Below, one piece after another: positions 10,197 through 45,949 of a stretch of DNA of 53,582 nt. The notes under the pieces are model-generated. The model worked only from the letters and a program-made list of their open reading frames with translations. It did not search any database and was not told the DNA's origin. A program made the translations under genes and the position numbers. Source of the stretch: a virus (lineage: Duplodnaviria > Heunggongvirae > Uroviricota > Caudoviricetes); IMG/VR virus record IMGVR_UViG_2923318301_000003, one strand, 5' to 3'. Positions within the stretch are counted from its first letter, which is position 1, and every line of letters begins with the position of its first letter.

Positions 10197-11228
10197 TTAC
10201 GCGAATTCTTCCACGATCGCCATGCCAGTAGCACCATCACCACCGGTAAATGCCGTACCGGTAAACCCAAGGTCATACGCGCCACCACCACCGGATCCGG
10301 GAGCTGCGCCAGCAATACCGGCCTGAGAACCCGCCCGGCCACCGCCGCCAAAATACGACGCCCCGCCGTTGCCCGTCAGAAGGCTTGAGCCTGTCTGTCC
10401 ATCTGAGCCGGTACCACCGTTGATCCTGATATCTCCGGTCGCCGCCGTACCTCCGGCGCCGCCGGCGGTATTGGACACGCCTGACTTCACGCCGCCTTTC
10501 CCGCCAGGAGCTGAGAACAGGCTGGCAAACGAGGTAGCACCACCATCCGCACCACTTACTGCGCCAACTCCGCCCTTACCACCCTTGCCGACAGTAATCG
10601 CGTAAGAACTGGCAGCAGACAGGTCAACCCATACGATAATGGTCGCACCCGCACCGCCGCCGGCACCGGAGAAGGTTTCTGTATTGTTGGAGGCCTGGCA
10701 GCCGCCACCGCCACCACCGGCGCCGGTCAACGTTACTTTTGCATAACGGGCCAGAGGAGATCGCGTATAGGTTCCGTTTGCATAGAAAGCTTTTGGAGCG
10801 CCAAGAGAACGCCCGACAAAACCAGAGGAATCAGATATTCCGAGGTTATAACGGGCTTCATTTACCGCATCTTCACCGGCATCTTTAATTTCTGACAGGT
10901 TATTACTGATCTGCAGGAAAGATAATAATGACCCGGCGGTCATTAAATTCGCGACAATGTCATTCGTTGACCATACGCGCGCCGTAGTTCCTTCCTGACC
11001 ACGAATTACTGTCATCACGTCACCAGATACAGATGTGACGTGCATAATTTCAGAAATTGTTTTCGTGGCCGCGTCGGTTATCGTTAATTTGAAATAACTC
11101 TGTCCCGAAACTGGCGATGGGAATAAAGACCCCGCTCCAGTACCCACGGTAATAACGGTAGCGGACGCGCTAATACCCGCAGCGAGCACACTCTTTGCGT
11201 TATTATTGGCTAATAGTTTCAACGCCAT
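10197..11228 (-). CDS. Glycine-rich tail-fibre-associated protein (distal fibre or receptor-binding partner)
   Basis: 343-aa ORF directly downstream of the side tail fibre gene; long GGxGG-rich repeats typical of phage fibre proteins. Occupies the tfa position but is larger than lambda Tfa. Confidence 0.6.
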   Translation of the reverse strand: MALKLLANNNAKSVLAAGISASATVITVGTGAGSLFPSPVSGQSYFKLTITDAATKTISEIMHVTSVSGDVMTVIRGQEGTTARVWSTNDIVANLMTAGSLLSFLQISNNLSEIKDAGEDAVNEARYNLGISDSSGFVGRSLGAPKAFYANGTYTRSPLARYAKVTLTGAGGGGGGCQASNNTETFSGAGGGAGATIIVWVDLSAASSYAITVGKGGKGGVGAVSGADGGATSFASLFSAPGGKGGVKSGVSNTAGGAGGTAATGDIRINGGTGSDGQTGSSLLTGNGGASYFGGGGRAGSQAGIAGAAPGSGGGGAYDLGFTGTAFTGGDGATGMAIVEEFA

Positions 11229-43045: not shown

Positions 43046-43401
43046 ACTTTCAGGCCCCTCTCATGTAACCAGTGGGCTGCACGCAGCCTGGCGTTTTCCT
43101 CACCGGCAAGCAGTGCGCGGATAATCCCGACCGCCTCGCTGTCGTCGTCCTTCACCGCGGTATGAAGCGTTATCCCCCGGGCCACGCCACGCTTTATCGT
43201 GATGACGCCTTTTTTCTCCAGTGCACGAAGATGCTCTACCGCTGCATTCACTGAACGGTATCCCAGCATGGTTGCCACCTCCTGATTGGTTGGCGGAAAG
43301 CCACGCTCTTTCTGGTAAGAAATCAGCATATCCAGCACCTGCTGCTGGCATTGAGTTAACGTCGTCATTACGCCCCCACGTAATTCCCTGATAGATACCA
43401 C
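43042..43401 (-). CDS. LexA N-terminal DNA-binding-domain-like protein lacking the S24 peptidase domain
   Basis: LTQCQQQVLDMLISYQKERGFPPTNQEVATMLGYRSVNAAVEHLRALEKKGVI closely parallels the LexA DNA-binding domain; protein is only ~110 aa. Start probably at 43368 (MTTLTQ). Confidence 0.65.
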   Translation of the reverse strand: MVSIRELRGGVMTTLTQCQQQVLDMLISYQKERGFPPTNQEVATMLGYRSVNAAVEHLRALEKKGVITIKRGVARGITLHTAVKDDDSEAVGIIRALLAGEENARLRAAHWLHERGLKV

Positions 43402-43862
43402 TCATCACTCGATACAGCGCGCTTGCTGCTTTTCCGTAAACACTGCTCACGACGCGCCAGAAAATTGTTTCGTTCTGGCTGGGAGTGGCTTTCACGGAAT
43501 GCCGCCATCCACACCGTTGCAGCACGACGGTATAAGCCCCTTGACTCCAGTTCTTCCGCCTGGCGGGTCAGGCACAAAATCACCCGGGGATCGTTAGTGC
43601 CGACATAGAAATTGCGCGCAGGTCTGGTTTCACGAACTGGTTGTGGTTCCGGGTCCTGCGCTCTCTCAGTCAGGCGCGGGAAATGTCTGCGTGTATCCCC
43701 TTCACAACGGTGAGCCACACGCCCACTCTGACGTAACTTGCTTGCTGACTGCAGAACGCGCTGCCGTGAGTAACCAGCAAAAGCATCCGCAATGTCTCCG
43801 GAAGTACACCCCGGATGGGCTTCAATGAATTTCTGAACGTCATTTAACAGACTCATGATCAC
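43368..43862 (-). CDS. Hypothetical regulator (PerC-like C-terminal region, tentative)
   Basis: 164-aa ORF; the segment AEELESRGLYRRAATVWMAAF resembles the PerC family from memory. Confidence 0.5.
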   Translation of the reverse strand: MIMSLLNDVQKFIEAHPGCTSGDIADAFAGYSRQRVLQSASKLRQSGRVAHRCEGDTRRHFPRLTERAQDPEPQPVRETRPARNFYVGTNDPRVILCLTRQAEELESRGLYRRAATVWMAAFRESHSQPERNNFLARREQCLRKSSKRAVSSDEWYLSGNYVGA

Positions 43863-44800
43863 CCCCTGAATCCTGCCGGGATCTGGCTGTAGTCCACGTT
43901 GTCGTAACTGGATTTGAAGTACGGGTCTTCGCGTTTTTCGGTGTACGTGCTTACGGACGGCGATAAGCGCAGGGAAAGCTCATCCCATTTTTCCCGCAGC
44001 TTCGACGGACTGAGCACGTTACGGCACCAGAACGGATCGCGGCTGACGCGGCTGTACATCTCGCAGATTTGTTTGTGAGTACGACCATCCTGCACACACA
44101 TCAGGCGAATTTCGTTTGCCCAGGCTGTCCAGTTCGGTTCTTTGGGACGAACCACCTCGCCGTCACATTCGGCGGCCTGCTCGTACAGGGCGATGATTTT
44201 TTTCCAGAGCCACTGTGCGCAGGTCAAATCATCCTGCGTCCCCCACTGGCGCTTTTTAGGGCTGAATACAACCGCATCAGGATGGCGAGTTAAAAAATCC
44301 TGTTCAGCCGTCTGCGTGTCCGGTTGCGAAGCGTCCGGACGAGAAGGTTTTTTATCTGACGGATCATGTTTTGATTTTACTGACGGATCCCCGCCAGATT
44401 CTGACGGGTGAAAACCCGCTTTTTTGCCAGATTTCGACGCATCAAATTTTGACGGGTCAGATTTTGATGCGTCAGATTTTGACGGGTCAGAATCTGACAG
44501 TTGAGAAAATGCCGCTGCCTGAAGCTTCGCAACGTTAAGCTGATAAACATTCGACGCATTGCGGTTACCCTGGCGACGCGCCTTACGCGTTAACCAGCCT
44601 TCTGCTTCCAGCCGTGCGATAGCCGTTCTGACGGTACTCATCCCCGCGCCAATCTGACGGGCAATGGTTTCAATTGATGGCCAGCACACACCTTCGTCAT
44701 TACTGAAATCAGCCAGGCGGGCCATAATTGCCACGCTGGATAATTTCATGCCTGACGCAGCGCAACCATCCCATACATAGCCGGTTAATTTAGTGCTCAT
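43859..44800 (-). CDS. Replication initiator (lambda O-like role) with N-terminal HTH and internal iteron-encoded repeats
   Basis: 313-aa ORF with N-terminal winged-HTH-like region; the central repetitive peptide (DPSKSDASKSDPSKFDASKSG) coincides with DNA iterons. Confidence 0.7.
   Translation of the reverse strand: MSTKLTGYVWDGCAASGMKLSSVAIMARLADFSNDEGVCWPSIETIARQIGAGMSTVRTAIARLEAEGWLTRKARRQGNRNASNVYQLNVAKLQAAAFSQLSDSDPSKSDASKSDPSKFDASKSGKKAGFHPSESGGDPSVKSKHDPSDKKPSRPDASQPDTQTAEQDFLTRHPDAVVFSPKKRQWGTQDDLTCAQWLWKKIIALYEQAAECDGEVVRPKEPNWTAWANEIRLMCVQDGRTHKQICEMYSRVSRDPFWCRNVLSPSKLREKWDELSLRLSPSVSTYTEKREDPYFKSSYDNVDYSQIPAGFRG
44350..44505. repeat. Array of ~8 direct ~15-bp iterons (consensus about ATTTTGACGGGTCAG) inside the initiator gene: candidate replication origin
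   Basis: Tandem repeats visible at 44351, 44373, 44395, 44430, 44445, 44461, 44476 and 44491; analogous to ori-lambda inside O. Confidence 0.7.
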
Positions 44801-44809
44801 GACCGACCT

Positions 44810-45148
44810 CTATTTCCCTGAATTTACGACGAAACTGTTCGAGCGGGCTGAAGCACTCATGCTCATAGCCTTCGCGGAGGTAGATAACCCGTTGTGTTTC
44901 CGGCTCCCAACGAATGACTCTGACGGGCACTCCGTAGTGATCTTTGAACCAGCGGTTAACTTGTCGCAAAGGACTGTCTCCTTCTGCCGGTTGAAATCAC
45001 CCACAGCCCACTCTGCAAAGCTGTGGGTTACAATTTCCCTGTCACCTGGTACATTTACTGCATAGCAATACTCCACCTTCGCTTTTCCACCCGGTACAGG
45101 AAGCGCAATCAGTTGCGAGCGACGGTAGTGTGTTGTTAAACTGTTCAT
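44810..45148 (-). CDS. Hypothetical protein, translationally coupled to the upstream regulator gene
   Basis: 112-aa ORF whose ATG overlaps the upstream stop (ATGA), ending 10 nt before the initiator gene. Confidence 0.5.
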
Positions 45149-45696
45149 GCGTTAGTTTCTCCACAGTCACGACACGCCACGGCGCCCGGAGCTGCACACT
45201 CGCGGGCGTCATTACTTTCTGAAATGCAAAAGATTTTGTAGACCAGTGCTGCATGCTCCTGCAGCTTCGAAATTGAGAGATACAGCTCGTCGTTAATTGC
45301 TGTCTTCTCATGCGGTTCCACCACACCGTCTTCGATTGCCGAACGAATCTGTCTGGAATAACTGCCAATCTGTTCAATGACTTCCAGCAGGCGCTGGTTA
45401 ATATCGGCGTTGTCCACATCCTCGACGTCAGGAAGAGACACAAAGACGCCATTTGCAGACTGCGCCACAGCGTCAGCAATGAAGTGAGTTCCACCAGCAC
45501 GTTGCAAAATCATTGCCCATCCCAGCGGGAAAATCTGATCGCCATCGGCACGAAGGCGGTTAAATAATGCGTTCTCTGTTACATCCAGCCAGTCAGCAGC
45601 TTCAGCGTACCCCCCCGGCAACGCTGCGATAGTTTTTCTGACAGCTTTCACGTACCACTCAGGCTGTTTTTCTACTTTCCAGTGATGCTTACCCAC
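45145..45696 (-). CDS. CII-like/YdaT-family regulator (tentative)
   Basis: 183-aa ORF directly downstream of, and overlapping, the Cro-like gene; occupies the cII position. Confidence 0.5.
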
Positions 45697-45949
45697 GGTT
45701 CACCTCCTGTTCCTGTGGTTTAAACCCATTCTGGTTTTGGCTAGATTGAAAACGTGCCGGATAAAGAATCTGCATTTCGCTGACTTCACCCTTAAAAAAA
45801 TTGGCTAAACGTTCTGCAAGCTCGATAGATGGAATCTGCTCCAGCCTCTCAATACGACTCAACGTCGCTGGATTGACTTGAACACCCGCAGCAACATGCT
45901 GCAAAGTGAAACCATGCGCCTTACGCACATTTCGTAATGGTGATTGCAT
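45689..45949 (-). CDS. Cro/YdaS-like HTH regulator
   Basis: 86-aa ORF with an HTH (GFTLQHVAAGVQVNPATLSRIER); divergent from the repressor gene; GGAGG RBS. Confidence 0.8.
   Translation of the reverse strand: MQSPLRNVRKAHGFTLQHVAAGVQVNPATLSRIERLEQIPSIELAERLANFFKGEVSEMQILYPARFQSSQNQNGFKPQEQEVNRG

Follow-up and report, generated by a model that had tools for sequence, protein, structure and literature searches.

The window, a 53,582-nt stretch of viral DNA of the class Caudoviricetes (IMG/VR record IMGVR_UViG_2923318301_000003), contains a complete lambdoid prophage, and the present analysis concerns its replication initiator gene, an array of short repeats inside that gene and the C-terminal end of the encoded protein. 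The prophage is inserted at tRNA-Thr beside proA. It is 99.9% identical to a prophage of E. coli SCEC020023, its early region shares 98.5% identity with Shigella phage SfIV, and it belongs to the SfIV/SfII-like lambdoid type. The early-right operon is encoded on the minus strand in the order cro-like gene, YmfL/CII-like gene, small open reading frame (ORF), initiator gene and PerC/YfdN-like gene. The initiator gene (43859..44800, minus strand) was identified as an ORF with a 942-nt coding sequence (CDS) for 313 amino acids (aa), and an identical CDS is present in the PGAP annotation of SCEC020023. Its DNA is 98.5% identical to the gp41 region of SfIV, and its product matched PHROG 391 ("replication initiation O-like") over the full length (8e-136).

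The initiator consists of an N-terminal winged helix, a disordered linker, a lambda-O-like C-terminal domain and a DnaT-like tail. The DNA-binding domain at the N-terminus (aa 1-99; 44504..44800, minus strand), which is the presumed iteron reader, was assigned to Pfam HTH_36 (4.3e-11) and has a MarR/ArsR-like winged-helix fold; winged helices of this kind typically read dyads as dimers. HTH_36 was the only Pfam match: Phage_rep_O was not detected at E <= 0.01, and the N-terminus of lambda O gave no tblastn match to the initiator. The C-terminal helical domain (aa 162-278; 43967..44317, minus strand) is a homologue of the lambda O C-terminal domain, with 39.3% identity over aa 166-277 (tblastn, E 9e-18); the same match at the identical locus L014 had an E of 6e-22 (local tblastn). 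In the AlphaFold2 model, this helical domain reached a predicted local distance difference test score (pLDDT) of about 86-96, whereas the linker (aa 103-160), between the two well-predicted domains, remained below 50. The protein closes with a low-confidence extension of ~35 residues (aa 281-313; 43862..43960, minus strand), at the end of which lies the DnaT-like peptide D303-YSQIPAGFRG-313 (43862-43894, minus strand).

A first-pass annotation, made from the letters of the window alone, had placed about eight direct repeats of ~15 bp at 44350-44505, within the central repetitive peptide of the initiator. Both the coordinates and the number were accurate: a ~15-bp unit occurs in eight copies over 44351-44500, five of them strictly phased at 15 bp and the other three dispersed, and the units encode residues of the disordered linker, the repeat-bearing aa 101-160 coinciding with the low-pLDDT segment. 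Tandem Repeats Finder reported 44428-44491 with a period of 15, 4.3 copies and a score of 86 (a period of 30 scored 100). Read in the coding (minus) strand, the five contiguous 15-nt iterons (44426-44500) are CTGTCAGATTCTGAC, CCGTCAAAATCTGAC, GCATCAAAATCTGAC, CCGTCAAAATTTGAT and GCGTCGAAATCTGGC, encoding in this order LSDSD, PSKSD, ASKSD, PSKFD and ASKSG. Every unit carries a 13-bp dyad, GTCA-N5-TGAC, and the dyad cores of the phased iterons lie at 44426-38, 44441-53, 44456-68, 44471-83 and 44486-98. The dispersed copies are iteron 6 (CACCCGTCAGAATCT; unit 44396-44410, dyad core 44393-44405), iteron 7 (GATCCGTCAGTAAAA; 44375-44389) and iteron 8 (GATCCGTCAGATAAA; 44351-44365), and a degenerate ninth unit is found at 44321-44335. 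Seven GTCA-N5-TGAC sites with at most two mismatches fall within 44363-44498. With at most one mismatch the 53.6-kb window holds 33 sites, five of which fall within 106 bp. The core TYTGACGGRTC (one mismatch allowed) occurs nine times in the window, compared with 3.0 +/- 1.65 in shuffled sequence (0 of 100 shuffles reached nine), and six of the nine occurrences are in 44355-44488. An excess of TGAC/GTCA at 10880-11040 (9 per 150 nt) was also considered; it lies inside a tail gene, shows neither periodicity nor dyads and was attributed to chance. Two GATC (Dam) sites, in iteron 8 (44362-44365) and iteron 7 (44386-44389), are each part of a GATCC(G/A)TCAG iteron-like unit, and 41 of 49 homologues retain two GATC within the corresponding 60 nt. 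Between the tandem and the dispersed iterons, at 44410-44428, runs a phased A4/T6 tract (GAAAACCCGCTTTTTTGCC) that could act as an intrinsic bend.

The first-pass annotation had further remarked that no P or DnaC-like helicase loader follows the initiator, that the next gene is a small regulator and that the route of helicase recruitment was unclear, and it had suggested a search for the missing loader. The next gene is indeed PerC-like, and no P, DnaC or DnaB homologue was found beside the initiator or elsewhere in the prophage. In the PGAP annotation, which covers the whole prophage, no gene is called as a helicase, loader or primase. At the identical 11-kb locus L014, no tblastn match was obtained with lambda P, two divergent P-like proteins, E. 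coli DnaC or E. coli DnaB, and a Pfam scan of ten neighbouring genes revealed no helicase or loader family. A phage loader was likewise absent from the regions read in SfIV, mEp460, ST64B, mEp390, phiNP and Klebsiella phage 1 LV-2017, all of which encode tail-bearing initiators. Several of these loader-less relatives, including SfIV (PMC3851460), were obtained as phages, and the module therefore works without a phage loader. The route by which the helicase is recruited, left unclear at first, now has a specific candidate in the DnaT-like C-terminal tail.

The initiator ends in ...YDNVDYSQIPAGFRG and E. coli DnaT (primosomal protein i) in ...VSEPDSQIPPGFRG; over the last nine residues, SQIPAGFRG in the initiator and SQIPPGFRG in DnaT, eight of nine positions are identical. 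When a 48-member initiator alignment was compared with a 36-member DnaT alignment by hhalign, only the 18 terminal columns aligned (E 6e-4). P308, G310, F311 and R312 are invariant in the 48 initiator family members, and the matching positions are invariant in the 36 DnaT orthologues. A tail of the GFR type ends 77 of 94 full-length family members and was present in all DnaT orthologues inspected. It is carried by three C-domain types, the O-like type and two unrelated ones (the phiNP type and the mEp460/ST64B type). Some relatives match DnaT over ~20 residues, RD(I/V)N..S.PD..IP.GFRG (for example ...RERDINAIS.PD..IPPGFRG), and a rarer ending, ...GFRGAK, is common to some phage variants and DnaT. 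Homology to DnaT beyond the tail was sought with BLASTP, phmmer against PDB sequences, Pfam (no PF17948) and hhalign, all of which showed the terminal peptide only. A tail-profile search of a 5.8-billion-protein set, which had little power, recovered nothing but DnaT fragments and pieces of phage replication proteins, and no third family with the tail. No paper mentioning "PGFRG" in the context of DnaT was found. A variant was observed in the initiator L085:3777-4679 from a Serratia metagenome-assembled genome (MAG), which ends ..GDIPEGFNQNLPATNQGGTDDDFI, with an internal IPEGF followed by an SSB-like acidic ...DDDFI tip; a DnaC-like gene follows this initiator.

The type of tail was compared with the type of loader in a species-level census of 79 complete loci from a one-genome-per-species collection, in which homologues of P, DnaC and DnaB were sought within 5 kb. 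The GFR tail was found in 51 of the 79 loci: 50 of these had no P, DnaC or DnaB homologue, one had a DnaC homologue and none had P. A P-like gene came next in all seven loci with an HWNSxEAWENTL tail and in the only locus with a lambda-type tail (Fisher p = 4.5e-10). A Phage_lambda_P gene also follows the initiators P0107 (tail ...HWNSPEAWENTL) and P0042 (tail ...DWIYGIEEDLHRILSRGEH, which resembles ...NTDWIYGVDL of lambda O). Of 80 viral contigs in which a DnaC-like phage gene was found, 79 had an upstream initiator ending in ...PD..(I/V)P.GFRG, on at least six N-domain types. The tails at lambda-P loci read ...NTDWIYGV(D/E)L in 76 of 76 cases and those at loci of a divergent P subfamily ...(H/D)WN(S/T).E.W..TL in 29 of 29, the latter on several N-domain types; a GFR tail was never seen with either. 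The lambda P query returned only near-identical lambda P loci, whereas the divergent P query returned a more diverse set. Host dnaT and dnaC show the same order as the phage pairs, a GFR-tailed protein directly upstream of DnaC.

Further endings were noted in the same survey. Lambda O (L008:1991-2890) ends ..LDLTNTDWIYGVDL, and the element ..LDFDNTDWIYGIE.. stands near the C-terminus of some initiator family members (P0042, P0060, P0065, P0090, L021); a P gene comes next in those of its bearers whose loci were read. A fourth tail class, ...W.(G/A)IW(Q/K)... (..RKAWAGIWQQAAEQAA.., ..SRWNAIWKEQAQR..), was present in 19 of the 79 species-level loci, and in none of these was a gene resembling P, DnaC or DnaB found within 5 kb. 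Loci of this class are L024, L026-L033, L049, L064, L068, L074, L075, L082 and L086-L093, and Yersinia phage YeP3 (L005:3076-4017) also belongs to it.

These patterns suggest that the tail docks DnaC-type loaders, in the window the DnaB-DnaC of the host. The GFR peptide presumably goes with a DnaC-type loader that is phage-borne or, where the phage has none, supplied by the host, and the P-associated tails suggest that the contact of O with P is likewise made through a terminal peptide. The tail may have a different partner: with the origin in the initiator gene as proposed below, it could bind PriA or PriB, or co-assemble with host DnaT, which would then bring DnaB-DnaC. Apart from the initiators, only DnaT, a component of the preprimosome, has this tail, and neither PMC13377028 nor PMC11087952 reports a partner of the DnaT tail. 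Some annotation pipelines already label such initiators "primosomal protein I", a label that is unsupported as family membership because only the terminal peptide is shared with DnaT. However, in all 80 cases in which a phage loader stood beside a GFR-tailed initiator it was a DnaC homologue and not P, which would be unexpected if the target were PriA, PriB or DnaT. In the solved preprimosome, moreover, the folded C-terminal domain of DnaT touches PriA and its linker touches PriB (PMC13377028), and the DnaT chains of the mature preprimosome (PDB entry 9ZBU) end at residue 154, so that the tail is not part of the chains in that entry. A restart-primosome partner is thus considered unlikely, and docking to a DnaC-type loader is preferred.

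The position of the origin itself was judged from the array and its relatives. A phased TCA-N5-TGA array, with one unit every five codons at aa ~100-127, was present in homologues from about 70 species. Such sites had a density of 3.9 per kb in the gene versus 0.37 per kb in the flanks, and the array was missing where the N-domain differs (L078, L080, L083, L084, L091). Clustering of 179 distinct initiators by N-domain gave about ten clusters, each with a private intragenic repeat, such as GTCAAAATCT, TGGTGCAGGA/AGATTCACCA, CCAAAAACGG, GTAACGTAAC and ATCCCCGAAA. The lambda-type cluster has ATCCCCGAAAACGGGGA-like repeats, which are those known for lambda. The occurrence of a separate repeat sequence with each N-domain type is the classical pairing of origin and initiator N-terminus. 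Together with the terminal peptides this makes two independent modular pairings, of the N-domain with the iteron sequence and of the terminal peptide with the loader type. As judged from these comparisons, the segment 44321-44500 is very probably the replication origin of the prophage, of the lambda style and located inside the initiator gene, where the initiator would bind the iterons and fire the origin. An origin of this type is already known, and that of the window is a further member. The earlier proposal of a probable origin analogous to ori-lambda inside O has therefore gained support from the constraint over aa 101-160 described below, from the array in ~70 species and from repeats that match the N-domain type. 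The analogy is apt in that the initiator shares 39% identity with the C-domain of lambda O and bears its repeats in the inter-domain linker, its N-domain being recognized only as HTH_36.

The repeats could instead be initiator sites used mainly for autoregulation, copy control, incompatibility or another DNA transaction, with the true origin elsewhere in the prophage. Plasmid iterons do serve in copy control and autorepression as well, and no strong A+T-rich unwinding element accompanies the array. The array nevertheless resembles ori-lambda in its place within the linker-coding part of an initiator gene, in its dyad symmetry and in the accompanying domain layout. The conserved stretch extends 100 bp past the tandem array into the GATC-containing, A+T-richer part, as expected of an origin with an unwinding flank, and GTCA-N5-TGAC sites with at most one mismatch cluster only at the array (5 of the 33 in the window). 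A mainly regulatory or other non-origin role is accordingly regarded as improbable in comparison with an origin.

In order to assess whether the repeats are a DNA element or a by-product of the encoded peptide, their nucleotide similarity was compared with that of recoded sequences. The region contains 75 near-identical 9-mer pairs; resampling of synonymous codons gave a mean of 11.9 (0 of 2000 reached 75), and permutation of the codons within the region a mean of 40.7 (6 of 2000 reached 75). Among 71 homologues (distinct sequences, one genome per species), synonymous-codon identity was 0.33-0.53 over aa 1-100, 0.74-0.91 over aa 101-160 and 0.55 over aa 161-170, whereas amino-acid identity was lower in the linker (0.42-0.73) than in the N-domain (0.56-0.86). 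Because synonymous identity in the linker is about twice that of the N-domain despite the lower amino-acid identity, this DNA is constrained beyond its coding needs. In pairwise comparisons with homologues from Klebsiella, Citrobacter and Yersinia phages, codons at identical amino acids were alike in 41-48% of cases in the N-domain versus 78-92% in the linker (Fisher p = 1e-7, 2e-7 and 6e-4). The constrained segment, which is the probable origin, thus comprises ~180 bp (44321..44500) encoding linker aa 101-160. An overlapping gene was rejected as the source of the constraint, the best alternative frame being open in only 24 of 54 homologues, and an RNA element was rejected as well: no Rfam family was found, and the only hit, mir-5880 at 44425-44499 on the minus strand, stayed below threshold (30.7 bits; gathering score 97) and is an artefact that the palindromic repeats produce. 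The comparisons favour a DNA element over a side product of the repetitive peptide. That the repeats are a mere footprint of a low-complexity DPSKS-type linker or of recent slippage duplications, as might be suggested by units of exactly five codons and by the repetitive, disordered Asp/Pro/Ser/Lys peptide that they encode, is hardly credible given the doubled synonymous identity in a less conserved peptide, the rejection of a peptide-only account by codon resampling, the conservation of the array across genera and the lack of a consistently open alternative frame or an RNA family match.

Taken together, our preferred reading, to which we assign a probability of roughly 60%, is that 44321-44500 is an SfIV/SfII-like origin within the initiator gene and that the DnaT-like tail of the initiator docks a DnaC-type loader and so recruits host DnaB-DnaC. 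According to this model, dimers of the N-terminal winged helix would bind the eight dyad-symmetric iterons, five in 15-bp phase and three distributed over a moderately A+T-rich stretch with GATC sites, and the bound initiators would build a complex resembling the O-some and open the DNA nearby. Each complex would present several flexible tails, which would then take hold of host DnaB6-DnaC6 by way of DnaC and hand over DnaB. In this way the initiator would be a functional counterpart of DnaT that is specific to the origin: the task that DnaT performs at abandoned forks, it would perform at a particular sequence.

Several points weigh against this reading. The partner of the tail is deduced only from the co-occurrence of genes and could be PriA, PriB, DnaT itself or DnaB instead, and the authors of the preprimosome structure (2026) favour the N-terminal domain of DnaT as the recruiter of DnaB/DnaC (PMC13377028). 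The viral-contig samples are redundant, so that 79 of 80 and 76 of 76 do not count as independent events, and joint inheritance of tail and DnaC-like gene, as a single block, could be part of the pattern. The fourth tail class is also loader-less, and the absence of a loader is therefore not exclusive to the GFR tail. On the side of the origin, no clear long A+T-rich unwinding element was found: the maximum is 73% A+T over 30 nt, and in the most A+T-rich part (44340-44380) ~30-40 bp at 60-73% A+T alternate with iterons 7 and 8. A "replication module" but no origin is named in the SfIV genome paper (PMC3851460), and no published origin was found in the accessible literature for the group of SfII, SfIV, SfV, ST64B, mEp460 and the Stx2c phages.

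The recruitment of DnaB/DnaC by DnaT or the preprimosome has been stated to be unknown (PMC13377028), and a contact of DnaC with PriA, PriB or DnaT has been stated never to have been shown (PMC11087952). A broader proposal, which we put forward tentatively and rate somewhat below even odds, is that the C-terminal peptide of DnaT (..PD..IP.GFRG) provides the missing link from PriA/PriB/DnaT to DnaB-DnaC through DnaC, and that the initiators of temperate enterobacterial phages, with the same peptide, act as an "origin-specific DnaT" for which an own loader is dispensable. The last 10-20 residues of O-like initiators would then constitute an exchangeable loader code, in which GFRG specifies a DnaC-type loader, NTDWIYG and HWNS.E.WE.TL each specify a P-type, and one or more additional tails exist. 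The loading of a helicase without a loader gene is of greater interest than the iteron array, which is itself an ordinary lambda-style origin. The tail result names a specific and easily mutated peptide, together with a partner, for an open question of replication restart. It also suggests a simple rule by which the dependence of a phage on host dnaC could be predicted from the last residues of its initiator. The phages concerned include SfII, SfIV, SfV, ST64B, mEp460, the Stx2c phages and many enterobacterial prophages, and such a rule would be relevant to Shiga-toxin and serotype-converting prophages.

Upstream of the initiator in the same operon, the cro-like gene occupies 45689-45949 and the YmfL/CII-like gene 45145-45696 (both minus strand). 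The gene calls directly upstream of the initiator, at 44790-45148 on the minus strand, are in conflict: phage records have a 112-aa ORF there (44810-45148; PHROG 1170, without a Pfam match), whereas PGAP has in E. coli SCEC020023 a 59-aa DUF4222 ORF instead (44790-44969), which overlaps both the initiator start and the 112-aa ORF. The gene after the initiator (43368..43862, minus strand) encodes a PerC/YfdN-like regulator and not a helicase loader (Pfam PerC, 7.8e-10; PHROG 1324 "transcriptional activator"; PGAP "PerC family transcriptional regulator"). It is followed by genes for a protein with a LexA DNA-binding domain, RusA, KilA-N, DUF968/HNH and Q. A Dam methylase gene lies directly after the initiator in SfII, SfV, mEp460, phiNP and Klebsiella phage 1 LV-2017; in the window prophage and SfIV no such gene is found at this place. 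Four Enterobacterales-type initiator loci (L054, L058, L076 and L083) sit in assemblies labelled Chryseobacterium, Vagococcus, Martelella and Bacillota MAG, and contamination or mis-binning is the likely explanation of these labels.

Comparison with known systems places the window initiator close to lambda O and ori-lambda. In both, the DNA-binding domain is N-terminal and the partner-binding domain C-terminal, the DNA encoding the linker between them holds dyad iterons, the gene is part of the early operon on the cro/cII side, and the C-domains are 39% identical. In lambdoid hybrids the N-terminus of the initiator sets origin specificity and its C-terminus loader specificity, and this modular rule is reproduced among the initiators surveyed here at the level of sequence. 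However, the window has eight 15-bp units, five of them strictly phased, compared with the four 19-bp iterons of lambda. Its origin lacks a pronounced A+T-rich block, its initiator lacks a Phage_rep_O match, the prophage has no P gene, and the protein ends in ...IPAGFRG and not in ...NTDWIYGVDL. With E. coli DnaT the initiator shares the extreme C-terminal D/E-x-x-(I/V)P-x-GFRG-COOH. Outside the tail there is no detectable homology, and the N-terminal domain and the folded single-stranded-DNA-binding C-terminal domain of DnaT are not found in the initiator. PriA/PriB direct DnaT to forks, whereas the phage initiator would reach its target through its own sequence-specific winged helix.

The C-terminal tip of SSB (DDDIPF) is likewise a conserved peptide that ends a disordered tail and docks replication and restart proteins. 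The likeness to the tail described here is an analogy of mechanism only, since the sequence differs and presumably the partner does too. A closer precedent is DopC of Cellvibrionales and Oceanospirillales, an O-like HTH_36 protein with a DnaT-derived C-terminal element that is paired with the helicase matchmaker DopE (PMC5509034), and the parallel between O-P, DopC-DopE and DnaT-DnaC was already drawn by Brezellec et al. in 2017 (PMC5509034). DopC, however, has a folded DnaT C-terminal domain (HHpred to 2RU8) and a P-like partner, lacks iterons and is chromosomal (PMC5509034), whereas the window initiator resembles DnaT in the terminal peptide alone, has iterons in its gene and is accompanied by no phage loader. 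The terminal peptide motif and the pairing of tail and loader were not described by Brezellec et al. (PMC5509034). What appears to be new in the window is therefore a loader-less initiator with a DnaT-type tail that presumably serves for docking.

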